A stretch of 61,026 bases of DNA, from the IMG/VR virus record IMGVR_UViG_3300048592_001388, positions 1-61,026 of that record; one strand, 5' to 3'. Source of the DNA: a virus (Duplodnaviria > Caudoviricetes). Positions 5,534 to 40,733 of this stretch are shown here, one piece after another. The stretch's first letter is position 1; every line of letters starts with the position of its first letter. Under the pieces are notes generated by a model. The model saw only the letters and a program-made list of their open reading frames with translations, searched no databases and was not told the DNA's origin. The position numbers were made by a program, and so were the translations under genes.

Positions 5534-5583
5534 GTGATCCTGTCAGATGATAGGTCGCCTCTTTGGATGACATAGCAGTTTGC

Positions 5584-12553: not shown

Positions 12554-12588
12554 TTGACTCTGTGTGTACTGTAGAACAAATAGAGAAC
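12554..12588 (+). promoter_or_regulatory. Putative promoter with alphaproteobacterial LexA (SOS) box
   Basis: TTGACT at 12554-12559; GAACAAATAGAGAAC at 12574-12588 matches GAAC-N7-GAAC and covers the expected -10 region, about 65 nt upstream of the ATPase start. Confidence 0.75.
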
Positions 12589-12652
12589 GCAAGAGCCGCC
12601 CCGTGCGGCATGGTGAACAGCCACATCGGCGTTACATATGGGGGAGCAATCG

Positions 12653-14584: not shown

Positions 14585-14593
14585 GGTTCGGGC

Positions 14594-15712
14594 ATGGATA
14601 GCCTGGCGCTTCTGCCCGCCGCCGTCGAAGGCGGGGATTGGCAAGACATCCGAGAACTGGTCGAGCGCACCGGGGAAGGCCTTCGCCTGTCCTCCGTGTC
14701 GTCCTCACGCATCCCTGAACTTGCACAGCTGTTCCTGCGCCTGTCGCGCCACGAGAACTGGCAGGTCCGCAAGGCGGTCGCGCACGCAGCGCTGTACCTC
14801 CGTCACGACCTGTTTCACGGCATCATCGCCAATCTGATCGACGACGACAATCTCTGGGTCCGTGACATCGCCCGAAAGACGCTGGTCCGGCGCAGCGAAC
14901 TGTCGCGCGCTGAGGTCAGGGCGCAGGATCCCTTCGATGCCGACGCCGCCCTGCTGGACGAGATCGAGAACCGCTATGGCGTGAAGGCGAGGAGGAGCGT
15001 GGTGGCCGCCGCCAGCAAGCTTCATCACCGTTTCGTCAAGGAAGTCTATCACGAGATCATCCGGATCCTGTCCCCGCTCGATACTTGCCTCGTCAACCTG
15101 GAACGGGATCTGTCCGGCAAGCCGGGGCTGGAGCACGCGGCGGACCGCATCCGGCGCGGCCATCATCATGTCGGCCTGATCACCGAGGTCCTCGAGAATC
15201 TGCGGGAGTTCACCGACGGCAAGCCCGCCGAGACGACCCGGGAGTGTCTGTCCTCGATCCTGAAGGAGGCCGTTTCGCTCGCGCAGCAAGGCGCTGCGGT
15301 ACCGCAGCCGACTCTGATGTTCAGCTTGCTGCTGCCAGAGAGCCTGTTCATCTCGGGTCATCGCTCGCGGCTGCTGCAGGCCTTCATCAACATCATCACC
15401 AATGCCATGGAGGCCTGCGAGGCTTCCGACCGGCAGGGGCGCATTGCCGTGAGCATCGAGCGCCAGTCGGAAGACTTCGCGAGGGTGCTGATCACCGATA
15501 ATGGCTGCGGGATGAGCCGTGACGCCGTGCGCGACTGCGTCGACCTGTTCAGCTCCGGCAAGGTTAGTGGCATGGGCTTCGGTCTTCCCATCTCCCGGAA
15601 AGTCATCGAGCAGGACCACAGCGGAATCCTCGCCCTCGAGAGCAGTCCGGGCGAGGGCACTACCGTCACGGTTCTCTTGCCCATCGAGCGTCTGGAGATG
15701 GAAGCGTCATGA
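14594..15712 (+). CDS. Cytoplasmic HEAT-repeat histidine kinase
   Basis: HEAT-like repeats (ENWQVRKAVA, DDNLWVRDIA), H-box YHEI, N-box NIITNAMEA, G1 DNGCGM, G2 GMGFGL; no transmembrane segment. Confidence 0.87.
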   Translation: MDSLALLPAAVEGGDWQDIRELVERTGEGLRLSSVSSSRIPELAQLFLRLSRHENWQVRKAVAHAALYLRHDLFHGIIANLIDDDNLWVRDIARKTLVRRSELSRAEVRAQDPFDADAALLDEIENRYGVKARRSVVAAASKLHHRFVKEVYHEIIRILSPLDTCLVNLERDLSGKPGLEHAADRIRRGHHHVGLITEVLENLREFTDGKPAETTRECLSSILKEAVSLAQQGAAVPQPTLMFSLLLPESLFISGHRSRLLQAFINIITNAMEACEASDRQGRIAVSIERQSEDFARVLITDNGCGMSRDAVRDCVDLFSSGKVSGMGFGLPISRKVIEQDHSGILALESSPGEGTTVTVLLPIERLEMEAS

Positions 15713-16464
15713 GTAATCACAGAGCCCTCATCGTGGAAGACGAGCGGGACATGGCCGCTGAGATTGGCGATCTCCTGGGATCGATGGGGTACGACCATGT
15801 CGCAATTGATAATCTCGCCGATGGCCGACGCCTGCTCGATGGAGGTGAGTTCTGCTTCATTCTCCTCGATCTGCAGATCAAGGCCGAGAAGTTTTCGATC
15901 CGTCCGCGCGTCGAAGCTGGCATGACATTCCTGAGGGAGTTGCGCCAGAAACATCCGCGCCGCGGTGACAACGACATGCACCTTTTGCCCGTCATCGTTG
16001 TGAGCGGCCATGCCAAGGAGCACGAGGACATCGTGCGCGCATTCCAGGCGGGTGCAAACGACTTCGTGAGAAAGCCACTCGGGCAGTTCGGGCAAGACCT
16101 TTCCGCCAAGATCGAGGCGTGTCTGGATCGTTCCGGACGTCACAGCCATGCCGCGTGCTGTGCCAATGCTGATGATGTCCGGCCGGAATGTGTGGTGGAG
16201 AACATTACACACTCTTCCGATTATCGCGAAGTGTGGTTCAGGGGTGAGCTCTTCATGTTCGGCGAACTGCAGGCCAGGGTCATCCGCTATCTCCACGAGG
16301 CATGGAAGTCGGGCAGTCCATGGGTCTCTGGGAAAGCCATCCTGCGCCGCGTCGGGTCCGGGGACTCCGCAGCAAAGCTCGCCAATCTCTTCCGTCGCCA
16401 TCCGGCCTGGCAGAAGCTTCTGCTTTCCGATGGACGCGGGGGGTATCGGCTCGCGGACGGATGA
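15709..16464 (+). CDS. Response regulator: receiver domain plus C-terminal winged-helix-like domain
   Basis: LIVEDE, phospho-acceptor LLDL, VVSGH, FVRKP; C-terminal domain QARVIRYLHEA..GKAIL..SDGRGGYRL; ATGA overlap with the kinase. Confidence 0.87.
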   Translation: MSNHRALIVEDERDMAAEIGDLLGSMGYDHVAIDNLADGRRLLDGGEFCFILLDLQIKAEKFSIRPRVEAGMTFLRELRQKHPRRGDNDMHLLPVIVVSGHAKEHEDIVRAFQAGANDFVRKPLGQFGQDLSAKIEACLDRSGRHSHAACCANADDVRPECVVENITHSSDYREVWFRGELFMFGELQARVIRYLHEAWKSGSPWVSGKAILRRVGSGDSAAKLANLFRRHPAWQKLLLSDGRGGYRLADG

Positions 16465-26984: not shown

Positions 26985-27557
26985 ATGCGGGTTCAGTTCC
27001 TCGAGGCCGATGATGTCCGCACCCGCTTCGAAGCAGCGTGCACGCGTCTTGGTGAGAGTGATGCCCGCCGCGCCTTCTCGATGGCGCTCAACAAGGAAGG
27101 CCGCAAGTCGTTCACGCAGCTGCGCCGGGCTCTGGCGCAGCAATCCTCAATCCCGCGTGGCGCGGTCAACGCTGCAACACGTTTCCAGTCCGCAACGCGC
27201 GCCACGATGTCTACCGTGACCTCCGGCACTGGCCGTCATCTGCCTCTTTCGGTCTTCGGTGCAAAGCAGTTCTCCTACGGCGTGCGTGCAAAGATCTGGG
27301 GCAGGGCGCAGACCTTCCGCTCTGCCTTCGTGGTGAAGCGTTACGGTGGCGGCGTGTTCAAGCGCACGGGCAAGGCGAGGTTTCCCATCGAGCAGCTGTG
27401 GGGTCCTGCGGTCCCCGTCGAGATGCTGCGTGATAAAGCGTATGCCGCCTGGACCGATCAGCACCCTCGCGTGCTGAAGGAGTCGGCACGCCTGATCGAA
27501 ATGATGCTGACTGGAGCGGGCTTCCGGGGGCTCCCGCGTAATCGTAGTCGTGCGTAG
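26985..27557 (+). CDS. Phage tail completion / GpZ-like protein
   Basis: AFSMALNK, SAFV..GGVFKRTGKARFPIEQLWGPAVP; Arg-rich. Confidence 0.7.
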   Translation: MRVQFLEADDVRTRFEAACTRLGESDARRAFSMALNKEGRKSFTQLRRALAQQSSIPRGAVNAATRFQSATRATMSTVTSGTGRHLPLSVFGAKQFSYGVRAKIWGRAQTFRSAFVVKRYGGGVFKRTGKARFPIEQLWGPAVPVEMLRDKAYAAWTDQHPRVLKESARLIEMMLTGAGFRGLPRNRSRA

Positions 27558-27718
27558 GGGGGCGGGCCCAGGAGCCCCATTGCGGGGTTCTGAGTAGCGC
27601 TGGCGCGGCGGCCCGGTTTTCGCGCGTTTTTCTGCTTTTGATTTTTCCGTTTTGTTTTGACTCGCACGCGCTGAAACGCCCGGAAAACTGGCATTTCCAT
27701 TGAGAGTTAGGGGGTCCG

Positions 27719-28978
27719 ATGATCGTCACCGACATGCCGGTGGAGAGCCTGGTTCCCTATGCCCGCAACCCGCGCAACAACACCGCCGCCATCGACGCGG
27801 TGAAGGCGTCGATCGCCGAGTTCGGCTTCCGCCAGCCCATCGTGGTGGACGAGAAGCTGGTGGTGATCGTCGGGCACACCCGGCTCGAGGCCGCGAAGCA
27901 GCTGGGCCTCAAGACTGTCCCGGTGCATGTGGCCGAGGGCCTGACCCCGGCGCAGGCCAAGGCCTATCGCATCATGGACAACCGCTCGCACGAGAATGCC
28001 GAGTGGGATGATGAACTCCTGCGGCTGGAATTCGGAGACCTGAAGCTCGACGACTTCGACCTAGCGCTGACCGGCTTCGTCTCCGACGAGCTCGACAAGC
28101 TCCTGGGCGCAGAGCAGATCGAGGGTCTCACTGACCCGGATGAGGCACCCGAGGTTCCCGCCGAAGCTGTCAGCCGGCCGGGCGACCTCTGGATCCTCGG
28201 CGATCACCGCGTGCTCTGCGGCGACTCGACCGTGATGACCGATGTCGAGAAGCTGATGGGCGGCCAACTGGCTGACATGGCGGTGACGGATCCACCCTAC
28301 AACGTGGATTACGGCAACAGCGCCAAGGACAAGATGCGCGGCAAGGACCGCCGCATCCTGAACGACGCGCTGGGCGATGGCTTCTATCAGTTCCTCTATG
28401 ACACCTGCGTCAACCTGCTCATGGTGATCAAGGGTGCCTGTTACATCTGCATGAGTTCCTCGGAACTCCACACCCTGCAGAAGGCTTTCACCGACGCCGG
28501 TGGCAAGTGGTCGACCTTCATCATCTGGGCGAAGAATACCTTCACACTCGGGCGCGCAGATTATCAGCGGCAGTACGAGCCGATCCTCTACGGCTGGAAG
28601 GACGGCAGTCAGCACTACTGGTGCGGCGCCCGCGACCAGGGTGATGTCTGGTTCGTGGACAGGCCGCGGGTGAACGACCTGCACCCCACCATGAAGCCGG
28701 TGGAGCTCATCGAGCGGGCCATCACCAATTCGTCCAAGAGCCGGGATATCGTCCTCGACCTGTTCGGCGGGTCGGGTACCACCCTCATCGCCGCCGAGCG
28801 CACCGGCCGCTCGGCGCGGCTGATGGAACTCGACCCCAAATACGTCGATGTTATCGTCCAGCGCTGGCAGGATTACTCTGGCAACACCGCGGTGTTGGCC
28901 GGCGAAGATCGGACCTTTGACGACCTCAAGTCGAGCCGCGCGAAACGCGCGGATCAATCCGTTCTATGTGAAGGCTGA
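27719..28978 (+). CDS. ParB-domain-fused amino-DNA methyltransferase (N6/N4, beta class)
   Basis: ParB-like PYARNPR..FGFRQP..GHTRL; catalytic DPPY; HPTMKPV; DLFGGSGTT. Confidence 0.92.
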   Translation: MIVTDMPVESLVPYARNPRNNTAAIDAVKASIAEFGFRQPIVVDEKLVVIVGHTRLEAAKQLGLKTVPVHVAEGLTPAQAKAYRIMDNRSHENAEWDDELLRLEFGDLKLDDFDLALTGFVSDELDKLLGAEQIEGLTDPDEAPEVPAEAVSRPGDLWILGDHRVLCGDSTVMTDVEKLMGGQLADMAVTDPPYNVDYGNSAKDKMRGKDRRILNDALGDGFYQFLYDTCVNLLMVIKGACYICMSSSELHTLQKAFTDAGGKWSTFIIWAKNTFTLGRADYQRQYEPILYGWKDGSQHYWCGARDQGDVWFVDRPRVNDLHPTMKPVELIERAITNSSKSRDIVLDLFGGSGTTLIAAERTGRSARLMELDPKYVDVIVQRWQDYSGNTAVLAGEDRTFDDLKSSRAKRADQSVLCEG

Positions 28979-29149
28979 TCGTAGCTTTGCTTCCAATGCA
29001 GCGATCTCGTCCTTGAGCACGAGCTTTTTGTGTTTCAGTTCGGCGATCTCCTGATCGCTGGATGAGGAATGAAGCAGCGCATCGGCAAGATCTGCCTCGA
29101 GTTGCCTGTGCTGCTCCTTGAGTACTTCGAGTCGAGCTTGGATTGACAT
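28964..29149 (-). CDS. DUF465 / YdcH-like coiled-coil protein (moron)
   Basis: MSIQARLEVLKEQHRQLE..IAELKHKKLVLKDEI; strong RBS GAGGAGG. Confidence 0.8.
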   Translation of the reverse strand: MSIQARLEVLKEQHRQLEADLADALLHSSSSDQEIAELKHKKLVLKDEIAALEAKLRSAFT

Positions 29150-29248
29150 AGTCCCTCCTCTGTCGAGTGCCGAACAAGGCAGAATGCACATCAGAGTGCA
29201 ACCGAATTTGCTCTTCGTCAAATGGACAGCAGATGAGCTGGAGGTCCT

Positions 29249-29464
29249 ATGCAATCACGCTTCATGTCACTCCTTGAGGCGGTCACCAACATCGTGGTGG
29301 GCTACGGCCTCGCCGTGCTGACCCAGATCATTGTGCTTCCGGTCTTCGGGTTTCACGCATCGGTGAGCGAAAATCTTCTGATAGGCGGGGCATTCACGGT
29401 CATCTCTTTGATTCGCAGTTACGCGCTCAGGCGACTGTTCATCGCTGTGGCGAAACTGGATTGA
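29249..29464 (+). CDS. Small phage membrane protein
   Basis: QSRFMSLLEAVTNIVVGY..RSYALRRLF, two hydrophobic segments; usual neighbour of phage methylases. Confidence 0.75.
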   Translation: MQSRFMSLLEAVTNIVVGYGLAVLTQIIVLPVFGFHASVSENLLIGGAFTVISLIRSYALRRLFIAVAKLD

Positions 29465-29555
29465 CCTGACAAGCCCATACCATTTATCGTTTGGATATGG
29501 TCTGTGACTGACCATCGATCGAGGCTGGGAAGCCCACCGGCAGCCTTGACTGACT

Positions 29556-29585
29556 GAGCCACCAGCTCCCCCAAGCTGGTGGCTC
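29556..29585. terminator. Hairpin between convergent genes
   Basis: 12-bp stem GAGCCACCAGCT/AGCTGGTGGCTC with a 6-nt loop; no clear U-tract. Confidence 0.45.
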
Positions 29586-29608
29586 GTCTGTTTCGAGAGC
29601 TGCCTCGA

Positions 29609-30076
29609 TTACGATGTCTTGTAGATCCGTCCTCTGATGTCATCCTTCTCCGAACTGACGACCAGCCCAAGCTTCTTCTTCAAGACGCCTGCCATGGCGC
29701 CCCGCACCGTGTGGGACTGCCAGCCTGTGGCATCGACGATCTCTGCGATGGTTGCACCCTCAGGGCGACGCAGAAGTTCGACCAGCAGGGCCTGTTTGGT
29801 GCCTCCGCGGATCTGGCGGTCCGTGCTCGTGGGAGTGGCTCGCTGTAACTCGGATTTTTCTGCTGACAGGACCAGCTTCTGACCATCCTTGGCGTAGTCG
29901 CCTTCGCCGGCGAGGCCGCGTGGTTCCAGTCTGCCCTTTCGGATCAAACTGGCAATGGCAGCACCGTAGGCGCGAGGGTCGGCTTTGGACTTCGACCGCT
30001 CGCGGGTGGGCACAACGCCATTGTTGCGGGCGGTGGTGGTAAGTATGACCTGTTCGGTGTCGGTGAGTTTCGTCAT
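29609..30076 (-). CDS. DUF3489 family protein
   Basis: TKQALLVELLRRPEGATIAEI..TGWQSHTVRG..LKKKLGL. Confidence 0.9.
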   Translation of the reverse strand: MTKLTDTEQVILTTTARNNGVVPTRERSKSKADPRAYGAAIASLIRKGRLEPRGLAGEGDYAKDGQKLVLSAEKSELQRATPTSTDRQIRGGTKQALLVELLRRPEGATIAEIVDATGWQSHTVRGAMAGVLKKKLGLVVSSEKDDIRGRIYKTS

Positions 30077-30174
30077 GAGTTTGCTCCTTTGCTTCGGACC
30101 GGCGCGTGTCGCCAGTTCCTAGGAGCCCAAGCCCCGCGTCTGAGGCGGGGCGGAGGTGAGGGATGGCCGGGGCC

Positions 30175-30399
30175 TCACTCGGCGTGTTCGCCTTCCTTGA
30201 AGGCGGCGTCGGTAACGCGCTTCAGCTGGGAGGCGTAATAGTCGAGGTTCCCGACGTGTCCCCAATGCAGCGTATCGGGATCGGTTTCGAAATGGCTGGC
30301 GCTGAGCGCAGCGAGTCTTGCCAGCATGGTGTCGATCTCGGCCTTCCTGGCGATGAAGGCAGCGAGGGCCTTGCTGTTGTCCTTGGTGCAGCTTTGCAT
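30175..30399 (-). CDS. Small hypothetical protein (DUF3489 neighbour)
   Basis: ALAAFIARKAEID..HF..P..HWGHVG; RBS CAGGAG. Confidence 0.75.
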   Translation of the reverse strand: MQSCTKDNSKALAAFIARKAEIDTMLARLAALSASHFETDPDTLHWGHVGNLDYYASQLKRVTDAAFKEGEHAE

Positions 30400-30651
30400 G
30401 GCGGTCTCCTGTTGGAGCCATACATGCTTCATGTGCGCCGGAAGACAAGCGGAATGAACGATCATGATATTGCTTTATGAGCAGGCCAAGAGCCTGACAT
30501 GAACGGGGACCCTACCCGCCCCTGGGACGCGCGATGATGCCGATGGAACCTGATTCGAACGACGGCCGGAGACGCCTCTTGTTCCTGATCAGCTGACTGA
30601 TCAGCACCTGCACGGGAGGCGAGCTTCAGTCTGACGTCGTTCTCCGACGGC

Positions 30652-31362
30652 TCAACTCAAATTGTGACTCTTGATCTTCTCCATCCACGCGTCCAGCGGC
30701 ATTTTTGCAACCTTTGCCGCTACGTCATGACTGCCGCCGGCCTCCTGCAGAATTGCCATCAAACACCGCTTCTCGAGTGCAGAAGCCGTCTCCGCAATTA
30801 CTTTGTCGAACGGCGAGCGTTCGATTTGCGCTAGAACACTTTCAACAGGAGAATCGGCCGTTCCTGGTTCATTGAGACCTCGTGCGGGGCTTTCAAGTTT
30901 CCGCAGCTTTTCATTGTACTGGTATTCCATCTCACGCTGAGCCGCCAGGAAGCGGTCGTTCGCTGCCTGCAATGGTCGCAGGTCACGCAGAACCAACATT
31001 TGGGCTTCCCGTCCATCGCTTCTCAGGACCAGATAACGTGCGAGAACCGGGATGAAGGTTCCAGCAGCGCCCACCAGATTGATGTGCCGCCAGGGAACCG
31101 CGGATGACGTCTCACTCGCATCGTTCGACATCAGAACATCGATTTTTCCGAGGGACTCTGGTCCGACGATGGTTCTGACAGGGTGCCCAATCCAGTGCGA
31201 GACGTCAGCGGCGGAAAAACTATCGGAGTGGACGGCATCGATCACAATGGAGTTATGATCGATGAATAGCGTAAGGTCCTGTGTCTTGTCGATCAACAAT
31301 CGCACCCATGCGGATGACAACGCGGGCAGTGTCACAGATTGGAGGGGATGTGCAGAAGCCAT
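30652..31362 (-). CDS. Miniature PpsR/CrtJ-like protein (N-domain, Q-linker, degenerate Fis-like HTH)
   Basis: DLTLFID, WIG..V..ES..K, WRHINL, RDLRPL....RF..AQ..ME and P...VI.ET...LEK.C match PpsR segments, but only 236 aa with no room for PAS1/PAS2. Confidence 0.75.
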   Translation of the reverse strand: MASAHPLQSVTLPALSSAWVRLLIDKTQDLTLFIDHNSIVIDAVHSDSFSAADVSHWIGHPVRTIVGPESLGKIDVLMSNDASETSSAVPWRHINLVGAAGTFIPVLARYLVLRSDGREAQMLVLRDLRPLQAANDRFLAAQREMEYQYNEKLRKLESPARGLNEPGTADSPVESVLAQIERSPFDKVIAETASALEKRCLMAILQEAGGSHDVAAKVAKMPLDAWMEKIKSHNLS

Positions 31363-31365
31363 GAT

Positions 31366-32172
31366 TCAGTTTCTCGAAAGTTCGACGGTCGTTGTGCCGG
31401 AGCAATACCCCAGCGCGTCTTCAACACTGAGCGCGATATAGTCTGCGCCCAGCCACTCATACTGGGTCCTAGGCGACGAAAAAACATTGCCCCCCAAAAT
31501 GATCTTCACGGATGGATTCCGACTCTTCTGGCGCAGCAGCGATATGAACTGTCCGAGATCAAGAAGTCCCTCATCATAACCGACCGAGAGACCAATGAAG
31601 TCGGCGGACCAGTCTGTTGCAGACCGTACTATACCGTCAGGATGATCGTTCGTGAAAGTCTGCGTGTCCCATCCAGCCGCACGAAAGCTGTCGCCGACGA
31701 CTGACAGCCCGAAGACGTGCTGAGTTTCTGGCGCGGCAGCCAGAAGGACCCGACCCCAGGCCGACCCCTTGGGTCTTGTCTGGTTGGGTCTCTTACTTTC
31801 GAGACGGCTCAGGAGCTGTTCTACGTTCCAGAACGCATAGACCGTATCGGTATAACTCCGTTGGCCGGCGCGCCAGTCGTTCTCGAGCTGAGGAATCACG
31901 GGAAGAATCAAGCTGAGCTGATCACGAGTTCCGACTGACGCGCTCTCCAGGGAAGAATTCAGGATCAACTCTGCTTGCTGCAGATCGCCATCGCAAAACG
32001 CCTCAAGAAGCGAAGTGCTTGACGGCCCCTCCTGCGACATGTCGCTGACACTTGCACGACTCGGGAGTGCGCGGAGTTTGAGCGCCTGGAGGGTGTCACC
32101 AAGCCACTTGCGACAATCCTGGATAGCGGCACTCGTCATGGGCGCCTTCGGGAATGGCATTGAAACGGTCAT
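31366..32172 (-). CDS. AerR/PpaA-like cobalamin-binding domain protein
   Basis: Helical cap (LENDW...SYTD), Rossmann B12 domain RVLLAAAPETQHVFGL..F..AGW, IGLSVG, ILGG, LGAD; 3-nt gap to the PpsR-like gene. Confidence 0.82.
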   Translation of the reverse strand: MTVSMPFPKAPMTSAAIQDCRKWLGDTLQALKLRALPSRASVSDMSQEGPSSTSLLEAFCDGDLQQAELILNSSLESASVGTRDQLSLILPVIPQLENDWRAGQRSYTDTVYAFWNVEQLLSRLESKRPNQTRPKGSAWGRVLLAAAPETQHVFGLSVVGDSFRAAGWDTQTFTNDHPDGIVRSATDWSADFIGLSVGYDEGLLDLGQFISLLRQKSRNPSVKIILGGNVFSSPRTQYEWLGADYIALSVEDALGYCSGTTTVELSRN

Positions 32173-32299
32173 AAACCGTTTAGCCAGTTTGTGCGGGCAT
32201 GTCCATCCACTGGGGCTCCGGAAAGCGTCGGTGGTGCGTCGGGGTTGAGCAATACGCGCTCGTCTGGGGGATTACTATTCAAGGGAAGGGGCCTGCAGG

Positions 32300-32797
32300 A
32301 TGGCGGAACATGCAGGCCTGATCCCCATCGGCCAGGCCGCGCGGCTGCTGATGATCTCGGAGGAGCGTATCCGGCAGCTGGTGAAGCAGGGCTTCATCCC
32401 GCGACCTGAGAAGCGCGGTTTCGTGCAACTCGTGGGGGCTGTGCAGGGATACCTGCGTTACCTGAAGGATGATGAGCGCCGCTCCGCCAAGTCGGCCGCC
32501 GACAGCCGGGTGCGCGATGCTCGGGCGCTCGAAATCGAACTCCGCATCGCCGAGCGCTCGCGCGAGCTGATCCCGGTCGAGGATGCACTCAACGACATGG
32601 CGGAGCTCGCGGGCATGGTGAGGTCGGAGCTTGCAGGGCTTCCGGCGCGGCTGACCCGCATCGTGGCCGAGCGCCAGAAGGTTGAAACAGAGATTGATGG
32701 TGTCCTCTCGCGCCTTTCCCAGCGAGCCGCAGAAAAGGCTGAAGGCCTGGAGGCTGGCCGAAGCCATCCTCCTGCCGGCGCCGAAGCTGCCGCCTGA
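32300..32797 (+). CDS. Terminase small subunit (Nu1-like)
   Basis: N-terminal HTH ISEERIRQL, coiled coil, ELIP..LAGLPARL; overlaps terL. Confidence 0.8.
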   Translation: MAEHAGLIPIGQAARLLMISEERIRQLVKQGFIPRPEKRGFVQLVGAVQGYLRYLKDDERRSAKSAADSRVRDARALEIELRIAERSRELIPVEDALNDMAELAGMVRSELAGLPARLTRIVAERQKVETEIDGVLSRLSQRAAEKAEGLEAGRSHPPAGAEAAA

Positions 32798-34736
32798 CGA
32801 GTGGGCGCGTCTTCACAGGGTCTATCCTGAAACGTCAGGCCTTCCCGGTCCGCGTGATCCCGGTCTCACGCCCTACATGGTTCCGATGACGCATGCGGTG
32901 CATGGCGGAGCGTACAAGCGCGTGGTGATGGTGTGCTCTGCGCAAAGTGGCAAAACGGAATCCCTGTTGGATGTCTTGGGCGCACGTCTCGACCAGCGCC
33001 CTGCACCAATACTGTACGTGGGTCCGATCCGGGACTTCCTGACCGACCAGTTCGAGCCGCGCCTCATGAGTCTGCTCGACGAAGCCGAGACGCTCTCGGC
33101 CAAGGTGGTGCGCGGGCGGCGCATGAAGAAGACGCTGAAGATCGTGGCCGGCGTTCCGGTACGGCTTGCGCATGCAGGATCGTCGGCGGCCTTGAAGTCG
33201 AGCCCTGCAGCACTCGCGCTGGTCGACGAGTACGACGAGATGCTGGCGAACGTGAAGGGGCAGGGCGATCCCTTGGGGTTGGTCGAAGCCCGCGGCGAGA
33301 CCTACGCCGACTTCGTTACCGCCATCACCTCGACGCCCTCGCGTGGGTTGATCGAAACCGAATTGGATGAGCGAAGCGGTTTCAGGTTCTGGAAGGTTGC
33401 GGTCCCAGAGGCCGTCGAGAGCGCCATCTGGAAGCTCTGGCAATCTGGTACACGGCATCATTTCTGCTGGCCGTGCCTACACTGCGACAAGTACTTCGTG
33501 CCGCGCTTCGAGCAGATGCGCTGGCCCGAGAATGCCACGCCGGCGGAAGCGTCAAAGGCAGCGCAGTTGCAGTGCCCGCATTGCGGCGGCTTGCACCAGG
33601 ATGCTGACAAGCAGGAGATGAACGCCCGGGGTCTGTACGTGGCGCCGGGGCAATGGGTGGAAAAGGGAGAAGTCCGGGGCCAGCCCCCGGAAAACGCGGT
33701 GATCAGCTTCTGGGCCAGCGGGCTGGCGAGCCCCTTCGTCACCTGGGGCACCCGGATCGAGCGTTATGTCCGCGCTCTTGCTTCGGGCGATCCCGACCAG
33801 GTGCAGACAGCGCTGAATGCCGGGTTCGGCGAGTGCTTTACTCCCGCTGCAGGCCGTGATGCGTTGGACTGGCAGGAGATCCTGCAGCGTCGCGAACCTT
33901 ACCGCATGAAAGAGGTACCCGGCGGCGTTCTGCGGTTGGGGATGGGCGTCGATGTGCAGAAGCTGTCATTATACTACACCATCCGCGGCTTCGGCGCGCG
34001 GGGACGGTCTTGGCTCATCGACCGCGGACAGCTTTACGGCCCCACCGACGACGACGAGGTATGGAACGCGCTTGCCGACCTGATGCTCACGCCCATCGCT
34101 GGACTGCAGATCGAGCGGGTGTTCGTGGACTCCGGCTTCCGCCCGAACAAGCCCGATGCAGGCGACGAACACAAGGTCTACGAGTTTGTCAGGCGCTATC
34201 CGTGGCTGGTTTCACCCACCAAGGGCCGGGCCAGCATGTCGCCGCCCTACCGGGTGTCGAAGATCGAGGTGACGCCGCGAGGCAAGAAGGCGACCTACTC
34301 CATCGATCTGGTCTGGCTTTCGACCGACTTCTTCAAGTCGCTTCTGGTGTCGCGGATCCGCACACCTCTCGATCAGCCGGGGTCTTTCATCGTGCCGGAC
34401 GATATTGACGAGGATTACGCGAAGCAGCTTGTCTCCGAGGTACGCGTTGTCGATGGCGCCACCGGCAAGCCGCAGTGGGTCCAGAAATCACGGGCCAACC
34501 ACTATCTCGACTGCGAGGCGCTTGCCATGGCCATCGGCTACTCGCTGAACGTCCAACGAATTCCGGATGGGGTGACGAGGGAGAGCCGCGGTGCTGAAAC
34601 CGGCCCTGAGACTGGAAGTGACACTGACAATGACGAAGCGACGGTTCGGGACAAGCCGGTAGTGGCTCTTGCTGCGGGAGCGATGCCGGACTTGCGTTCG
34701 CGCTTCGCAGGCCTTTCGTCACGATTGAACAGGTGA
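32682..34736 (+). CDS. Terminase large subunit, lambda GpA family
   Basis: TPY, SAQSGKT, VDEYD, STP, CPHCG, GVDVQ, VDSG, NHYLDC. Start uncertain (ATG at 32697 possible). Confidence 0.93.
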   Translation: MKQRLMVSSRAFPSEPQKRLKAWRLAEAILLPAPKLPPDEWARLHRVYPETSGLPGPRDPGLTPYMVPMTHAVHGGAYKRVVMVCSAQSGKTESLLDVLGARLDQRPAPILYVGPIRDFLTDQFEPRLMSLLDEAETLSAKVVRGRRMKKTLKIVAGVPVRLAHAGSSAALKSSPAALALVDEYDEMLANVKGQGDPLGLVEARGETYADFVTAITSTPSRGLIETELDERSGFRFWKVAVPEAVESAIWKLWQSGTRHHFCWPCLHCDKYFVPRFEQMRWPENATPAEASKAAQLQCPHCGGLHQDADKQEMNARGLYVAPGQWVEKGEVRGQPPENAVISFWASGLASPFVTWGTRIERYVRALASGDPDQVQTALNAGFGECFTPAAGRDALDWQEILQRREPYRMKEVPGGVLRLGMGVDVQKLSLYYTIRGFGARGRSWLIDRGQLYGPTDDDEVWNALADLMLTPIAGLQIERVFVDSGFRPNKPDAGDEHKVYEFVRRYPWLVSPTKGRASMSPPYRVSKIEVTPRGKKATYSIDLVWLSTDFFKSLLVSRIRTPLDQPGSFIVPDDIDEDYAKQLVSEVRVVDGATGKPQWVQKSRANHYLDCEALAMAIGYSLNVQRIPDGVTRESRGAETGPETGSDTDNDEATVRDKPVVALAAGAMPDLRSRFAGLSSRLNR

Positions 34737-34740
34737 GCCC

Positions 34741-36339
34741 ATGGGCATGATGGATCGGATGCGGGACTGGCTTGCGCCGTCCCGCGCGAGATCCGTTGCG
34801 CCTCCCGCAATCCGCGCCGACTTCATGCGCGGGAATCGTGGTGTGGTGTTCGGCGGCTGGCGGCCGGCGCTTCGAGAAGCGGCCGATGACGTCGGCGCTT
34901 CCTGGGACCTTGCTGCGGCGCGCACCATTGACCTGATCCAGAATTCCGGATGGATGGCAGGCGCCTTGGACCAGGCGGTTGCCAACACCATCGGTACGGG
35001 TCTCCGATTGAAGGCCATGCCCGAGAATGACCTCTTCGGCATGAGCAACGCTGAGGCCGAGAGCTGGGCCCAGACCGTCGAGCAGCGCTGGAGCCTTTGG
35101 GCTGACAAGCCCTACGAGTGCGACATCGAGGGACGGCGGTCATTCGGGCTGATGCAGGCCGCTGCTTTTCGCTCCTGGTTCGCCACCGGCGAGATCTGGG
35201 CTGAGCTTCCCTGGCGGGAACGAGCCGGGGGGCGCTACGGCACGAAGGTCAGGCTCATTCCGCCCCACCGGGTTGTCCGGCGCAATGAGGCATCCCGCAA
35301 CATCGTACAGGGTGTCCGTATGGATAATGACGGCATGCCCGTCGGCTATGTCGCCACCCGCAAGGACCTGTCTCTTGGCACCGTGGAATACGATGTCACC
35401 GCGCGCGATGATCTTGGTCGCATCCGCGTTATCCATGTCTTCGACGGCATGCCGGGGCAGGTGCGGGGGATTTCTCCGCTGACACCCGCCCTGCAGGTGG
35501 CGCGCCAGTTCGACCAGCTTTCGGATGCGACCCTCACGGCGGCCATTCTGCAGACGGTCTTCGCGGCCTCCATCACCTCGGATGAGCCGACGGAGGAAGT
35601 TCTCTCGGGCCTGCTCACGCCGCAGGAGCAGGCACGGCTTTCAGCCAGCGGCATCTCGCCGTGGGACGCTTATATCCAGGCCCAGTCGGGCTGGTACGAC
35701 AATGCCACCATCAATCTCGGCATCAATGGCCGGATTGCCCATCTGTTTCCGGGCCAGAAGCTCGAGCTTCACCGCGCCCAGCATCCGCATTCGGACTACC
35801 GGGACTTTGCAGCACACCTGCTTCGCGAACTCGCCCGCTGCATGGGGCTCACCTATGAGAGCGCCACGGCGGACTACACAAACGCCACCTACTCGAGCGT
35901 CCGCATGGCGTCCGGCGAGATCTTCCAGATCACGCTCTACCGCCGGGCACATATTCTTGGACCCTTCTGCACTGCCGTCTATGAAGCCTGGCTCGAGGAG
36001 GAGATCGCCCGCGGGGGCATTCCGTTCCCCGGCGGACTCGATGGCTTCCTTGCCAACCGCTCGGCGGCCTCGCGCGCCATCTGGCGGGGAGCGCCCAAGC
36101 CCCAGGCGGATGACCTCAAGATGGCCAAGGCCCACGAGATCTGGTGCCGACTCGGCGTCATGACGGACGCGGCGATCGCCGAGGATCTCGGCCACGACAT
36201 CGAAGACGTTTATGCGCAGCGCGCCCGCGAGAAGGCGCTCCGCGAAACTTACGGCCTGCCCGACCACCAGTACCAGGGGGTCACCAACCCCTCTGGTGAC
36301 TCCGCTGACGATCCTGCCGAGGACAGCTCACAGCAATGA
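34741..36339 (+). CDS. Portal protein, lambda family
   Basis: GQVRGISPL, GLTYE..DY..ATYSSVR; follows terL. Confidence 0.9.
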   Translation: MGMMDRMRDWLAPSRARSVAPPAIRADFMRGNRGVVFGGWRPALREAADDVGASWDLAAARTIDLIQNSGWMAGALDQAVANTIGTGLRLKAMPENDLFGMSNAEAESWAQTVEQRWSLWADKPYECDIEGRRSFGLMQAAAFRSWFATGEIWAELPWRERAGGRYGTKVRLIPPHRVVRRNEASRNIVQGVRMDNDGMPVGYVATRKDLSLGTVEYDVTARDDLGRIRVIHVFDGMPGQVRGISPLTPALQVARQFDQLSDATLTAAILQTVFAASITSDEPTEEVLSGLLTPQEQARLSASGISPWDAYIQAQSGWYDNATINLGINGRIAHLFPGQKLELHRAQHPHSDYRDFAAHLLRELARCMGLTYESATADYTNATYSSVRMASGEIFQITLYRRAHILGPFCTAVYEAWLEEEIARGGIPFPGGLDGFLANRSAASRAIWRGAPKPQADDLKMAKAHEIWCRLGVMTDAAIAEDLGHDIEDVYAQRAREKALRETYGLPDHQYQGVTNPSGDSADDPAEDSSQQ

Positions 36340-36587
36340 CCATCATCACAGACTATGCCGATCCGTGCGCAGTGCTGCCGCGGATCCGCGAAGCCTATTA
36401 CGCGCTGCTGGAAGGCCGACGCCCGGAAGTCATCGAGTTCGACGCCGGCAATGGGGTCAGGCGCAAGGTGCAGTATGGGCGGACGGATCTTGGAGCGTTG
36501 CGGGCAGAGCTTTCGCGCCTTGAGGCAGTTTGCAGCCGCGTCGGCGGCCTTCGGAAGCGCTTCGGCCTCAGGGCAGGAGGATATTGA
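36336..36587 (+). CDS. Head-tail joining protein, GpW-like
   Basis: 83 aa; AYYALLEG..V.Y...DLGAL..EL..LE pattern. Confidence 0.7.
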   Translation: MTIITDYADPCAVLPRIREAYYALLEGRRPEVIEFDAGNGVRRKVQYGRTDLGALRAELSRLEAVCSRVGGLRKRFGLRAGGY

Positions 36588-37927
36588 TGCCCGGACAGCT
36601 CTTGCGCCTCAGCGACCGCCTGCTCAACACGCCGCTCCTAATCCACCCGGCCAAGGCCCAGATCATTCTCGGCGCCCTGAGCGGGAGAATCGACATCGAT
36701 GCCCAACTCTTCTCTCTGGATGAGACAGCCGAATCACCCGATGCGAATCGCTTCACCGGCTCGTCGCGCCGCGCCGACGGCAGCTCGTCCATGTCACGCA
36801 CCGCCGATGGCGTCGCCATCATTCCGGTGCTCGACACGCTGGTGAATCGCGGTGCGTGGCTCGACAGCCGGTCGGGCCTCACCAGCTACGAGGGGATCGC
36901 GGCCCAGCTTCGCGCGGCAGGGCAAGATCCGGAGGTACGGTCGGTCCTGCTCGACATCTCCTCGCCCGGCGGTGAAGCCGCCGGCATGGCAGGTCTGGCG
37001 GATCTGATCCGTTCGGTTCGCCAGACCAAGCCTGTCACCGCCTTCGTCAACGACATGGCGGCCTCTGCTGCCTATGGCATCGCCAGCGCCGCCAGCGAAA
37101 TCGTCATCTCGCCCACATCCATTGTCGGATCCATCGGCGTCGTCATGCTGCACGCCGACCGCTCGGGCGAACTCGCCGCACAAGGCGTGAAGCCGACCCT
37201 CATCTTCGCCGGGAGCCACAAGGTCGACGGCAACCCGTTCGAGCCACTGTCGGATGCCGTGCGCGCCGACCTGCAGGCCAGCGTCGATGCCCACTACCGC
37301 CAGTTCCTCGACACGGTTGCCGCGGGCCGCGGACGGAAACTCACCGCCGACATGGCGCGCGCCACCGAGGCCCGCACCTTCATCGGTGCGGAAGCCCTCA
37401 CGCTGGGCCTCGCCGACCGTATCGCCAGCTTCGATGAGCTGCTGGCCTCACTCTCACAAACCACCCGCCCGTCCGGGCGCAATGCTCGCAAAGGAGGGAT
37501 ATCCATGAGCACAGAAGACATTGCCGCAGCTGCGGGAGCAACCCCGGCAGCACCGATTGCACCGGCACAGCCCGCGCGGCTGGACGCGCTGGCACCGCAG
37601 TCTGCTGCGAGGCTGGACGAGGCAGTTGCTGCCGCCCGCCTGGAAGAGCGCGCCCGCATCCGCGCCATCGTCAACTGCGAGGCCGCCGAAGGCCGCGAGA
37701 AGCAGGCTCTGATGCTGGCAACTGAGACGGCACTCTCTGTTTCCGAGGCGGAGAAGATCCTCACTGCCTCGCCCAAGGAGTCCCGTGTCGAGGCGCTCGC
37801 CCACCGTGCGGCTACAGGCCCTGAGTTCGGCTCGAGCGGTGACGACCGTCCCAATCCCGCTGCCCGCACAGAAGAGGGCTGGAAGCGCGCCATCGCCAAC
37901 GCCAACCGCCGCTTCGCCCGTTCTTGA
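36587..37927 (+). CDS. S49 capsid maturation protease with C-terminal scaffold
   Basis: DISSPGGE, AASAAYGIAS, VGSIGV; Ala-rich C-terminus with ERARI. Confidence 0.9.
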   Translation: MPGQLLRLSDRLLNTPLLIHPAKAQIILGALSGRIDIDAQLFSLDETAESPDANRFTGSSRRADGSSSMSRTADGVAIIPVLDTLVNRGAWLDSRSGLTSYEGIAAQLRAAGQDPEVRSVLLDISSPGGEAAGMAGLADLIRSVRQTKPVTAFVNDMAASAAYGIASAASEIVISPTSIVGSIGVVMLHADRSGELAAQGVKPTLIFAGSHKVDGNPFEPLSDAVRADLQASVDAHYRQFLDTVAAGRGRKLTADMARATEARTFIGAEALTLGLADRIASFDELLASLSQTTRPSGRNARKGGISMSTEDIAAAAGATPAAPIAPAQPARLDALAPQSAARLDEAVAAARLEERARIRAIVNCEAAEGREKQALMLATETALSVSEAEKILTASPKESRVEALAHRAATGPEFGSSGDDRPNPAARTEEGWKRAIANANRRFARS

Positions 37928-37941
37928 GAGGAGAATCAGAC

Positions 37942-38313
37942 ATGACCGTTCTCGTGGAAACCCGGCATCCGGGGGAGTTCATCCTCTCGGAAGCCAACGG
38001 CCAGCGCTCGCGCGAGGCCATTACCATTGCGTCAGGTGCCGGCATCATTGCCGCCGGCACCGTCCTCGGCAAGATCACCGCCAGCGGAAAATACGTCGCC
38101 AGCGCAGCGGGAGCGACCGACGGCAGCGAAACCCCTGCCGCCATCGCCATCTACGGTGCCGATGCCACCATCGCGGATGTGACCGTCTCGGCCATCGTCC
38201 GCGACGCCGAGGTGAACGGCACCTGCCTCACCTACCACGCCGACCGTGACCAACCTGCCGAGAAGGCTGCTGCGAATACGGCCCTCGCCACCCTCGGCGT
38301 CATCGTGCGCTGA
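37942..38313 (+). CDS. Head decoration protein
   Basis: EFILSEANGQRSRE, AGTVLGKIT, DGSE, RDAEV. Confidence 0.85.
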   Translation: MTVLVETRHPGEFILSEANGQRSREAITIASGAGIIAAGTVLGKITASGKYVASAAGATDGSETPAAIAIYGADATIADVTVSAIVRDAEVNGTCLTYHADRDQPAEKAAANTALATLGVIVR

Positions 38314-38330
38314 TCCCGGAGACAATACAC

Positions 38331-39362
38331 ATGTCCATTCTCAACATCTTCACCCAGGACGCCTTCAGCGTCATGCGCCTCACGGACGCGTTGCGCGAGA
38401 TCTCCTATGTCCCCTCGGCCATCGGCCAGATGGGCCTCTTCCAGACGGTGAGCATCGACACGCTCGACATCGCCATCGAGAAGGACAAGGCCCAGAACGG
38501 CATGCTGATCCAGGCAAGCCCCCGCGGCGGTCCCGGCCAGACCTTCGGCAAGGGCAAGCGCTCCATGCGCACCCTGAGGGTCCCCCACTTCCAGGTGGAT
38601 GACGCCATCAATGCGGACGAGGTCCAGCAGGTAAGGGTCTTCGGCGAGGAGGTCGCCGTGGAGCGCCTGCAGTCGAAGATTGCCGAGCGCGCGGCGGAGG
38701 CCTCCCAGTTCTTCGCCCTGACGGAGGAGTACCACCGCATCAACATCCTCAAGACCGGCCGTCTTCTCGACGCCGACGGGGCGGTGCTGTTCGACTACTT
38801 CACCGAGTTTGGCGAGACCCCTGCCGCCGAGATCGACTTCGACCTCGACAATGCGACGCCGCCTGAGGGCGGACTCCGCAAGAAGTGCGCTGGCGTCATC
38901 CGCCAGATGGCAGCGACCCTCGACGGCATTCCCTATACTGGCGTCATGGCGCTGTGTGGGGATACCTTCTTCGACGACCTCATCGCCCACAAGGAGGTCC
39001 GCGACACCTACAAGGGCTATGCCGATGCGGCGAGCCTGAGGGGCGCCTACATCAACCCCGGTGCCGGCGGCCTTCACGGCTCCTTCGACTTCGGCGGCAT
39101 CACCTGGGCCAACTACCGGGGCGGCGGCAGTGTCGGGATCGACACCAACAAGTGCCATCTCCTCCCCATGGGCGTGCCTGGTCTGTTCCGCACCGTCTAT
39201 GGCCCGGCCGACTACATCGAGACGGTGAACACGCCAGGGCAGCGACTCTACGGCAAGCAGTGGGAGATGATGAACGGCAAGGGCGTCAATCTGGAGTTCC
39301 AGATGAACGCGCTCCATTACTGCACCCGCCCGCGCGTGCTGATCCCCGGCAAGCGAACCTGA
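38331..39362 (+). CDS. Major capsid protein, lambda GpE family
   Basis: 343 aa; F..DAFS..LT, SPRGG, TEEYHR, YGPAD, N.L..CTRP; follows the decoration gene. Confidence 0.9.
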   Translation: MSILNIFTQDAFSVMRLTDALREISYVPSAIGQMGLFQTVSIDTLDIAIEKDKAQNGMLIQASPRGGPGQTFGKGKRSMRTLRVPHFQVDDAINADEVQQVRVFGEEVAVERLQSKIAERAAEASQFFALTEEYHRINILKTGRLLDADGAVLFDYFTEFGETPAAEIDFDLDNATPPEGGLRKKCAGVIRQMAATLDGIPYTGVMALCGDTFFDDLIAHKEVRDTYKGYADAASLRGAYINPGAGGLHGSFDFGGITWANYRGGGSVGIDTNKCHLLPMGVPGLFRTVYGPADYIETVNTPGQRLYGKQWEMMNGKGVNLEFQMNALHYCTRPRVLIPGKRT

Positions 39363-39375
39363 GTCGGGCGCGTTC

Positions 39376-39792
39376 ATGACCTCGGTCTTTGACGCCCTCG
39401 ATGCGCTGGCGTCTGACGCGGCAATCGAGGGGTTCGGTGAAGAGGCCGTGCTGACTCCGCGCCGAGGCAATCAATATGTCGAGGCCGCCGCCGACGCAGA
39501 TCGTATGGCGGTGAAGGTCAGGGGCATCTTCTCGGCCCTGGCCGCGTCCTCCGATCTCCGGGGGCAAAGCCGGGGTGGGGAGTTCACCGGAACGACGCGC
39601 GTCGTCTCCGAGCAGACAGCCTTCTGGATTGCCGCCGCGCAGGTTGCGGATCTTGGGTTCCGGCCCGCCAGGGGTGATCAGATCAAACTGCCGGAGCGAT
39701 GCGGAAGCCCGAGCTACGCCATTTCCGCCATTCATCCGACCAGCATGGGCGATCTCAACCTTCTTCTCGTCCGGGAGGATGTTGCGGTGTGA
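39376..39792 (+). CDS. Head-tail joining protein (FII-like)
   Basis: Position after the capsid gene; FGEEA and P..GD.I motifs. Confidence 0.6.
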   Translation: MTSVFDALDALASDAAIEGFGEEAVLTPRRGNQYVEAAADADRMAVKVRGIFSALAASSDLRGQSRGGEFTGTTRVVSEQTAFWIAAAQVADLGFRPARGDQIKLPERCGSPSYAISAIHPTSMGDLNLLLVREDVAV

Positions 39793-39839
39793 GTGTTCGC
39801 GTTCCGCAGCGAAACATTGCGGGGGGCGATTGCGGGGGA

Positions 39840-39911
39840 GGGGCATGTTCCTGTCTGGAACATGCCCCGATCATGGCGTCGATCGGAAAACCTTCCAGTC
39901 TGGAAGGTTTT
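39840..39911. repeat. Cluster of perfect inverted repeats
   Basis: GGGGCATGTTCC-N5-GGAACATGCCCC (39840-39868), CCGATC-N8-GATCGG (39867-39886), AAAACCTTCCAG-T-CTGGAAGGTTTT (39887-39911). Confidence 0.85.
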
Positions 39912-39932
39912 TGGCATTGAAGGAGTCTCTGC

Positions 39933-40733
39933 ATGAGCCTCGCCCGTCTTGCCATGCGCATCGCTGCCGCCCGTGCGCTTCGCGGTGCGACGCTGGCGGA
40001 GGGGCGCGTCCATGATAGCGCCATCGCGCCCATCGATCAGACCATTGCTGAGGAGCGCCAGCCCATCCTGATCGTCACCACTGACGATCACGAGATGGAT
40101 GTGACGGGGCGGGACCTGTTCCACGGGAATGTTTCCTGCGACCTTGTCATCGAGGCCGCCATTGCAGCGCGGGTCGAGATCGCGGGTGAGGAAAGCGTCA
40201 TCACCATCCCGCATACGGACGAGGGAATGGAGCTTGCCCTGGATCTCATGGAGCATCAGGTCATGGCGGCGCTCATCCGAGAGCGTACACCATGGTCGCG
40301 CGTCTGGATGAAGCTTGTGCCGCGTATCTCGCGGCGTCTGTCGCGGCGCGGCGCCTCGGTCGAGAAGGGTGTGCGCTTTGCCGCAAGGCAGATTGTCCTC
40401 ACCTGCGATCTGATCGAGGCCCCCACCGATGGCACTCCTATTGGTGAGGGCACGGCGTGGGCGGAACTGCTCACCGTTATGGAGGCCGACGCCGATCTGG
40501 CGCCGATTGCGCAGATGCTGCGATCGGAGATCGAAGGTACTCCTCTTGCCGACTGGCGGCGCGCCGCGAACATGCTGGGCATCCATCTGGAACCCGCAGA
40601 CGCAATTGGCCTCGGGCCTGTGCTCGATTTATCGGAAGACCCGCAGACATTCGAGGAGGCCGAGATCGCGGGCGGCCCCGATCCTGTAATTGTCAACCAC
40701 CACACCGCGCTGGCCCGCATCGCCGATGCGTGA
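39933..40733 (+). CDS. Hypothetical virion protein (neck/tail terminator position)
   Basis: 266 aa with RBS AAGGAG, between head joining and baseplate V genes. Confidence 0.65.
   Translation: MSLARLAMRIAAARALRGATLAEGRVHDSAIAPIDQTIAEERQPILIVTTDDHEMDVTGRDLFHGNVSCDLVIEAAIAARVEIAGEESVITIPHTDEGMELALDLMEHQVMAALIRERTPWSRVWMKLVPRISRRLSRRGASVEKGVRFAARQIVLTCDLIEAPTDGTPIGEGTAWAELLTVMEADADLAPIAQMLRSEIEGTPLADWRRAANMLGIHLEPADAIGLGPVLDLSEDPQTFEEAEIAGGPDPVIVNHHTALARIADA

Follow-up and report, generated by a model that had tools for sequence, protein, structure and literature searches.

The window, i.e., the whole stretch of DNA analyzed here, is a provirus record of IMG/VR, 61,026 bases long, with a CheckV completeness of 100. 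Immediately before the terminase gene terS, antisense to the late genes, it bears a unit of two genes, the first encoding an AerR/PpaA-like cobalamin (B12)-binding protein (hereafter, the B12 protein) and the second a half-size relative of the regulator PpsR/CrtJ (hereafter, mini-PpsR). An earlier note, made from the sequence alone, had drawn attention to this minus-strand operon and to its weaker GC bias. Both open reading frames (ORFs) are in place, separated by 3 nucleotides (nt), and both GC and the GC content of third codon positions (GC3) are lower than in phage genes: GC is 0.557–0.585 over 29001–32000 vs. 0.62–0.68 in the surroundings, and GC3 is 0.63 for the B12 gene and 0.59 for the mini-PpsR gene vs. 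about 0.73–0.89 for phage genes. The pair does not belong to a photosynthesis cluster: its neighbors are phage genes, and the window proteins include no Photo_RC match, in agreement with the remark of the same note that puf genes are absent from the window. The features of the locus are as follows (aa, amino acids; HTH, helix–turn–helix).

31366–32139, minus strand: AerR/PpaA-like cobalamin-binding protein, 257 aa from the probable start (the open frame reaches up to 32172, 268 aa)
31717–31719, minus strand: codon of His141, predicted lower axial cobalamin ligand, motif APETQHVFG
32113–32115, minus strand: codon of Cys9 in the N-terminal helix (C..WL), invariant in the family
30652–31362, minus strand: mini-PpsR, 236 aa, with N-PAS (~17–127), Q-linker helix (129–157), disordered linker and Fis-type HTH (185–232)
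30763–30765, minus strand: codon of Cys200 in the HTH domain of mini-PpsR, invariant in the family
32140–32299, minus strand: upstream region of the cassette with promoter-like boxes and an inverted repeat
30548–32299, strand undefined: the variable cassette in its full extent

The B12 protein and mini-PpsR

The product of the first gene is a predicted AerR-type cobalamin binder. It matches the Pfam B12-binding domain (PF02310) at 7.2e-14, above the cut-off, and AppA_SCHIC weakly, below the cut-off of that model. A 13-member alignment (A4) of the window protein and 12 relatives, whose loci had been fetched and translated, was used as a profile against solved structures and has AerR of Rhodobacter capsulatus as its best match (7te2, 3.7e-13); the best solved match of the window protein as a single sequence is AppA. 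In the AlphaFold2 (AF2) model (predicted local distance difference test, pLDDT, of 75.5), a helical cap (helices 39–114) is followed by a beta/alpha Rossmann domain, so that the protein has the four-helix cap and Rossmann-type B12-binding domain characteristic of AerR/PpaA. The Foldseek matches of the model include B12 photoreceptor domains, AerR (7te2, 1.2e-8), AppA SCHIC, and CarH. A DNA-binding domain was found neither by the Pfam scan nor in the AF2 model. Finally, in 18 of 19 Hyphomicrobiales loci, the gene immediately preceding full-length ppsR, i.e., the canonical ppaA/aerR, encodes a protein 26–31% identical to the B12 protein. Profile, structure comparison, and gene order thus agree on the AerR/PpaA-like nature of this protein, and the homology of the two genes to aerR(ppaA)–ppsR(crtJ) in the canonical order, as put forward in the earlier note, is borne out as well.

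That note had also singled out the His of TQHVFG as the position of a cobalamin ligand. In the A4 profile alignment, this residue (His141, APETQHVFG) pairs with the AerR His of PPGEQHTLG, as shown in LLIVPPGEQHTLG, which supports its assignment as a predicted lower ligand, and Trp89 and Tyr96 pair with the AerR Trp and Phe, likewise seven residues apart. According to PMC9144470, His145 of AerR is the lower axial ligand and Trp94/Phe101 form a cap over the upper ligand. His141, Trp89, and Gly-Gly 216/217 are invariant in all 13 members of the B12 family, as are C9, W12, and L13 at the N-terminus (Cys9-x2-Trp-Leu).

The upper ligand is another matter. In the long form of AerR it is provided, after photolysis, by His10, whose counterpart is absent from the window protein, with the invariant Cys9 found there instead: residues 1–140 contain no His at all, and the 13-member alignment has no conserved His column ahead of His141. 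As reported in the same source (PMC9144470), the short form of AerR is also devoid of His10 and binds several cobalamins irrespective of light. With no possible upper-ligand His, the B12 protein may therefore report on the corrinoid supply, as short AerR does, rather than on light, unless Cys9 is the upper ligand; a role for Cys9 as an upper ligand or a redox site is a speculation.

The frame of the B12 gene exists as listed, at 31366–32172; translation, on the other hand, probably starts at 32139 with an internal Met, which gives 257 aa, since it is from this point on that relatives share the N-terminus and a Shine–Dalgarno-like stretch (GAAGG/GAGAG).

The second gene encodes PpsR reduced to its N-PAS domain, Q-linker, and HTH with a conserved Cys. 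Mini-PpsR matches the NCBIfam PpsR-CrtJ model (TIGR02040) at 6e-19 over profile positions 1–136 of 442, missing the equivalog cut-off (68.4 bits vs. 275.4), and the only solved sequences it matches are Rhodobacter sphaeroides PpsR constructs (4hh3/4hh2; 2e-8, residues 9–160). Its AF2 model (pLDDT 78) comprises a PAS domain (17–127), a long helix (129–157), a disordered stretch, and a helical C-terminal domain (185–232), and the seven best Foldseek matches are all PpsR chains. Among 19 long frames of full-length ppsR loci searched with the family profile A1, 15 were matched, each in two separate parts, and in all 15 these parts are the N-domain with the Q-linker (~23–165) and the HTH (~401–475, 21–35 bits); for the other four frames, the wrong ORF was probably taken by frame picking. 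Mini-PpsR is therefore PpsR without PAS1 and PAS2, at the place of which its model has a 26-residue disordered linker, the total length being 236 aa vs. about 470 aa for PpsR. The PpsR-like partner announced in the earlier note is thus homologous to PpsR, as claimed, yet only half as long and without two of the PAS domains.

Cys200 is invariant in 27 of 27 mini-PpsR sequences and falls into the column of the HTH Cys conserved across eight full-length PpsR sequences. Its CrtJ counterpart is the redox-active Cys420, which controls DNA binding, according to PMC9144470. The recognition helix of mini-PpsR reads MPLDAWMEKI vs. LSRQSLY.KL in PpsR. The net charge of the HTH ranges from +1 to +4 in the phage clade vs. 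−2 to +5 in PpsR; it is not below that of PpsR, and DNA binding therefore is still plausible, with a specificity that would differ from that of PpsR.

It might be supposed that the pair regulates nothing and is a passenger: a decaying hitch-hiker, or else a corrinoid carrier/scavenger whose partner does not bind DNA. The phage alleles are poorly conserved, the weak NCBIfam matches of the B12 protein are to corrinoid carrier proteins (MtgC, MtbC), and Pfam yields no significant HTH match on the window protein. Yet no locus covering the two frames completely shows a disruption in either, the HTH part has its homolog in the HTH of PpsR, and the best solved relatives are regulators (AerR, AppA, CarH-type) and not enzymes. 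Because of the invariant columns, moreover, numbering 25 across 27 mini-PpsR sequences and 28 across 13 B12 proteins, we regard a passenger as highly improbable.

An accessory cassette and its family

The pair is flanked by the following phage genes, those on the minus strand lying outside the two-gene unit.

27719–28978: ParB-methylase
29609–30076, minus strand: DUF3489 protein, phrog_10315
30175–30465, minus strand: orf96b, a 96-aa phage ORF, phrog_14596
32300–32797, plus strand: terS, phrog_57, start of the late/packaging genes
32682–34736, plus strand: terL, GpA ATPase and nuclease domains

Besides the window, four other contigs of the phage lineage (L002/L029, L026, L027, and L028) carry the cassette, in the same slot by terS. 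Protein identities to the window among these cassette-bearing contigs are as follows.

TerS: 92–97%
TerL: 89–93%
ParB-methylase: 86%
Portal protein: 92%
B12 protein: 45–63%
Mini-PpsR: 54–66%

Among phage relatives, DNA similarity ends exactly at the terS start codon, and a chromosomal copy of the pair (L003) is homologous to the window only over 30644–32151. Scanning species genomes for terL yielded 60 loci, 43 of which (L061–L103) were compared: none of the 43 contains a B12 or mini-PpsR match. Among them, 14 loci have a TerL identity of 80% or more together with 500 nt or more of sequence upstream of terS, and all 14 lack the cassette. The closest prophage relative belongs to an Aestuariivirga metagenome-assembled genome (MAG) and is 93% identical in TerL, 97% in TerS, and 97.5% in primase; in the cassette-less L061, orf96b and terS are 49 nt apart. 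Since 14 close relatives lack it at the same junction, the cassette, whose composition is unlike that of the surrounding phage genes in both GC and GC3, is a true accessory (moron-type) insertion in a temperate phage. The provirus record and the cassette-less close relatives thus bear out the earlier description of the pair as a prophage moron.

The genes for DUF3489 and orf96b were considered as parts of the module and rejected, being kept in cassette-less relatives and absent beside chromosomal pairs. Accessory genes may have a general hot spot in this slot upstream of terS, whose content differs in some related prophages: in L074 (5820–6616), it contains ~800 nt of other DNA, and in L098, there is no DUF3489 or orf96b match upstream of 6652.

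Nothing similar was found in the phage databases searched. Megablast of window positions 27000–40000 against GenBank phages gave no match, nor did tblastn of mini-PpsR against 50,697 GenBank phage records, and PHROGs and PADLOC have no family for either protein. A phage-borne AerR/PpsR or a half-size PpsR is not described in the literature covered by a full-text search, supplementary files excluded. The assertion that no prophage-borne case is known thus holds for the literature and phage databases searched.

Together with its relatives in and outside phages, the pair makes up a small family, mostly from metagenomes, in which the gene order is fixed. A word-indexed search returned 40 mini-PpsR clusters of 159–240 aa, and an exhaustive profile search at E ≤ 0.001 returned 1070 proteins (35 with E ≤ 1e-30), headed by short forms of 214–251 aa, which full-length PpsR follows; 84 of the 187 fetched proteins are 200–260 aa long. 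The B12 gene lies directly upstream of the mini-PpsR gene in 17 of 18 loci (the 18th begins inside the mini-PpsR gene), the two genes being 0–8 nt apart or overlapping by 4 nt. A quick maximum-likelihood tree (61 rows) groups the mini family into one clade against eight full-length PpsR sequences (SH-aLRT 100), with one subclade of 25 rows comprising all phage-borne copies and one chromosomal copy, and another of 25 rows comprising chromosomal and island copies. In genome collections, the short form is rare. Profile A1 matched 83 of 401 genomes in the order of the Hyphomicrobiales MAG G001 and 46 of 401 in the order of the MAG G402, the short form being found only in the seed genome of each order and the other matches being long frames hit in their N-part. 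Motif scans (alignments A2 and A3) of 185,579 species genomes found two genomes, and a single-protein scan of genome contigs found no relatives.

The non-phage contexts are diverse. In G001 (L003), the chromosomal pair lies among GST, Dus, MFS, and ArsR genes, and in L024 (from G402), L033, and L034, it is located beside a SpoU methylase, gatCAB, and mreBC. In L003, cobT and cobS are found ~3 kb from the pair and were not seen in the other loci; being neither adjacent nor recurrent, they are but a weak hint. In L036 (7132–11499) and L037 (5717–9340), both on metagenome contigs with a GC of 0.46, the GC3 of the pair is ~0.27–0.36 vs. 0.5–0.7 upstream, and integrase-family genes follow, which suggests that these pairs reside on a genomic island. 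A distant relative of mini-PpsR (244 aa, 28% identity) is encoded on the 613-kb plasmid of Roseinatronobacter sp. S2 (NZ_CP121115.1; L041, 5060–6639), where a “cobalamin-dependent protein” precedes it and the pair abuts puhABC-acsF-puhE-hemA at the edge of a photosynthesis cluster. Four 50%-clusters are of this Roseinatronobacter type (P0144, P0099, P0133, and P0138).

Putative regulatory DNA, hosts, and phototrophy

Upstream of the B12 gene, promoter-like boxes were recognized by eye: TGGACA (32200–32205) and, at a distance of 15–16 nt, GCTAAAC (32178–32184). The same two boxes with the same spacing precede the B12 gene in L003, L026, and L002 and are degenerate in L027. A scan for consensus promoters and terminators did not list these boxes and found no terminator-like site behind the pair. 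The upstream region also contains an inverted repeat, AAACGG-N7-CCGTTT (32163–32181). On the other side of the cassette, ~50 nt past the mini-PpsR stop, CTGATCAGC occurs twice at 30585–30605, 12 nt apart; this repeat is at the same time an 8-nt perfect palindrome pair, and the scan gave no T-run terminator there.

The PpsR box was rejected as an operator of the module. TGT-N12-ACA boxes are not enriched in the window (9 vs. 5.6 expected, with 9 of 100 shuffles reaching 9) and are absent from the intergenic DNA flanking the module; those at 12431 and 12561, situated in the early divergent promoter region, the second overlapping a LexA-box-like repeat, were taken as coincidental.

Given its position, the pair could, as the earlier note also considered, provide an input into the life cycle of the phage itself by gating phage genes (the packaging/late operon or lysogeny) in response to B12, light, or redox. 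Its location upstream of, and divergent from, terS is conserved in five phage contigs, its alleles have diverged far more than the flanks, as they do in immunity regions, and the early operon encodes further sensors of the phage, namely a histidine kinase together with a response regulator. At the same time, none of the 14 close prophage relatives has the cassette, the same pair is found in chromosomes with no phage genes nearby, no repeated operator-like site was found in the upstream region of terS, and the LexA-box-like GAAC-N7-GAAC in the early promoter suggests ordinary SOS control. On balance, such gating seems decidedly unlikely.

Other features of the prophage are mentioned here for completeness. 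At its left end, cut by the window border, an HsdM-type N6 DNA methylase (HsdM_N and N6_Mtase) is encoded at 1–2391 (minus strand). It is followed by a low-GC block (2990–6594, minus strand) encoding a subtilase-type protein (847 aa) and an AAA ATPase (336 aa), with matches to the PADLOC models IetS (1e-26) and IetA (3.9e-72), which makes this pair a candidate Iet anti-phage defense pair, and then by a large serine recombinase/integrase (7115–8554, minus strand; phrog_95, 1.1e-105), next to which the block lies. The divergent early regulatory region bears TTGACT (12554–12559) and then GAAC-N7-GAAC (12574–12588), which we take to resemble the alphaproteobacterial LexA box, with one TGT-N12-ACA match overlapping it. 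The rightward early operon (12638–16464, plus strand) starts with an SMC/AAA-type ATPase (648 aa). Next come a histidine-kinase-like protein (HATPase_c, 372 aa) and a receiver protein of the response-regulator type (251 aa), which together give the phage a two-component pair.

Traces of the cassette in sequencing runs point to its habitat. Fourteen runs contain at least half of the words of the cassette region; they are metagenomes of wastewater, activated sludge, freshwater, and aquatic origin, and one may be the source of the window. Runs with small shares of the words were disregarded in naming habitats. An activated-sludge DNA run yielded a 4339-nt contig over 29284–33622 with 213 differences. 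In a wastewater RNA library, two low-depth 151-nt contigs cover 31344–31620 at 99% identity (1–2 differences), and the flanking phage genes have no long match in the same library; this is a weak hint of transcription of the pair, as contigs reveal neither strand nor level and may derive from carried-over DNA. Exact contigs over 30043–30537 (orf96b) are present in two biofilm RNA libraries, both from one study. Since an RNA-library contig is exact to the window up to 30548 and then continues with unlike sequence, the biofilm libraries may have sampled a relative whose cassette slot is occupied differently, and they are no evidence of silence.

As to the host, the window is placed among prophages of Hyphomicrobiales from freshwater and wastewater, and the phage is a temperate one, with prophages of Aestuariivirga as its nearest relatives; related prophages are also present in Bauldia, Devosia, Aquibium, Mesorhizobium, and Cypionkella. 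Five genomes with related prophages were searched: two, both of Aestuariivirga, encode pufLM and full-length PpsR (two of the three Aestuariivirga genomes), and none encodes mini-PpsR.

These data bear on possible cross-talk between the phage and host regulators. Either mini-PpsR and host PpsR would assemble into mixed oligomers by way of the N-domain and Q-linker, or host PpsR would be the docking partner of the phage AerR-like protein; in both cases, the bacteriochlorophyll/photosystem expression of a lysogen would be reset. Mini-PpsR keeps exactly those parts of PpsR/CrtJ that serve for dimer contacts and AppA/AerR docking (PMC9144470). The likely host genus includes phototrophs, as just mentioned; in G402, the chromosomal pair coexists with pufLM and full-length PpsR in the same MAG; and the distant Roseinatronobacter pair abuts photosynthesis genes. 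However, the phage proteins are only ~25–31% identical to canonical PpsR and PpaA and fall into a separate clade, showing no sign of host-protein mimicry, and the strict pairing in 17 of 18 loci suggests that the two proteins serve each other. Neither pufLM nor full-length PpsR was found in G001, a carrier of the pair whose genome completeness is not given, and pufLM was not found in the Aestuariivirga MAG with the closest prophage relative. Moreover, the sequence occurs mainly in activated-sludge and wastewater runs, the recognition helix is different, and no PpsR boxes lie near the module. Cross-talk of this kind is thus rather unlikely.

A bolder version, which we hold to be quite unlikely, is that a temperate phage of aerobic anoxygenic phototrophs (Aestuariivirga) employs a minimal, orthogonal cobalamin/redox switch, derived from the master regulators of photosynthesis, to reset the pigment/photosystem expression of the lysogen in response to light or B12 supply, with Cys9 replacing the upper-ligand His and thus providing a thiolate–cobalamin photochemistry. 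The earlier note had likewise proposed that the phage rewires host photosystem expression; this was not borne out, as PAS1 and PAS2 are absent, the recognition helix differs, and PpsR boxes are not enriched. With pufLM and full-length PpsR in two of the three Aestuariivirga genomes, a link of the cassette to phototrophy may nevertheless exist.

A proposed two-protein switch and its known counterparts

The interpretation that we favor, with moderate confidence, is that the cassette, as a moron, provides a mobile switch of the co-regulator/regulator kind that is orthogonal and depends on B12. It is likewise fairly probable that the two proteins constitute a self-contained transcription switch descended from the aerR(ppaA)–ppsR(crtJ) pair. 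In the proposed mechanism, the cassette would probably be transcribed in the lysogen from its own sigma-70-like promoter. By analogy, the cap helices of the B12 protein would dock on the Q-linker of the mini-PpsR dimer, a contact modeled on AppA–PpsR and AerR–CrtJ (PMC9144470). Cobalamin held by the B12 protein would then alter the binding of mini-PpsR to an operator other than the PpsR box, the HTH Cys of mini-PpsR may add a redox input, and the genes regulated would probably be those of the host or of the phage. A complex prediction with two mini-PpsR chains and the B12 protein scored 0.00 and, with controls absent, gives no verdict, speaking neither for nor against the contact.

Several observations weigh against such a switch. 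The cassette proteins are only 45–66% identical between phages vs. 82–97% for the flanking proteins, which could reflect relaxed constraint rather than a tuned switch. The recognition helix of mini-PpsR contains acidic residues, and the Pfam HTH_8 match on the window protein falls short of significance (the relative from L036 reaches 27.9 bits). The inverted repeat upstream of the B12 gene is not enriched in the window (2 matches vs. 1.7 expected), no inverted repeat is common to the upstream regions of the cassette alleles, and the biofilm RNA libraries contain no contig at 99% over the pair. Finally, cobalamin binding, the protein contact, the operator, and the regulon are all inferred from homology.

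If the switch is real, it would be the first phage-borne cobalamin-sensor/regulator pair. The cassette defines an undescribed mobile family, in which a half-size PpsR comes with its own AerR-like partner, and it bears on three questions: the minimal PpsR architecture required for co-regulator control (N-PAS, Q-linker, and HTH are kept), the presence of regulatory and not only metabolic auxiliary genes in phages of anoxygenic phototrophs, and B12 sensing with no upper-ligand His. A compact two-protein B12/light switch orthogonal to the host would also be a useful tool. Were the pigment-resetting version true instead, the pair would count as an auxiliary gene set that regulates anoxygenic photosynthesis, with a Cys9 photochemistry not known in AerR or CarH.

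Of the known systems, AerR–CrtJ of R. capsulatus and PpaA–PpsR of R. sphaeroides and other purple bacteria are the most similar: in both, the gene for a stand-alone cobalamin co-regulator immediately precedes, in the same orientation, that for a PAS/Q-linker/Fis-HTH regulator, and the lower-ligand His, the Trp/aromatic cap, N-PAS, the Q-linker, and the HTH Cys are kept in the cassette proteins. In contrast to these systems, the cassette regulator has no PAS1 and PAS2 and a different recognition helix, the cassette B12 protein has an invariant N-terminal Cys and no upper-ligand His, and the pair resides on a phage, an island, or a plain chromosome and not in a photosynthesis cluster, with an identity of 25–31%. 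The AppA–PpsR2 complex (PDB 4HH3) contains the best solved match for mini-PpsR, and the Q-linker, which is contacted there by the SCHIC cap, is kept in mini-PpsR; however, AppA has a BLUF domain and its SCHIC binds heme, whereas the window protein has the B12 His. The model of the B12 protein appears to share the cap-plus-Rossmann photoreceptor fold with CarH/LitR as well, but CarH/LitR is a single chain with a MerR DNA-binding domain and an upper-ligand His, while in the cassette the sensor and the DNA binder are separate and no such His is present.

Cyanophages carry psbA and other photosynthesis genes as auxiliary genes, and the full-text searches found no such case described for phages of anoxygenic phototrophs. 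Like phage morons and auxiliary genes, the cassette is a host-derived set in a variable slot, with a foreign composition and, as judged by eye, putative promoter-like boxes; unlike the psbA-type genes of cyanophages, it consists of a regulator pair and is neither a metabolic nor a structural gene.

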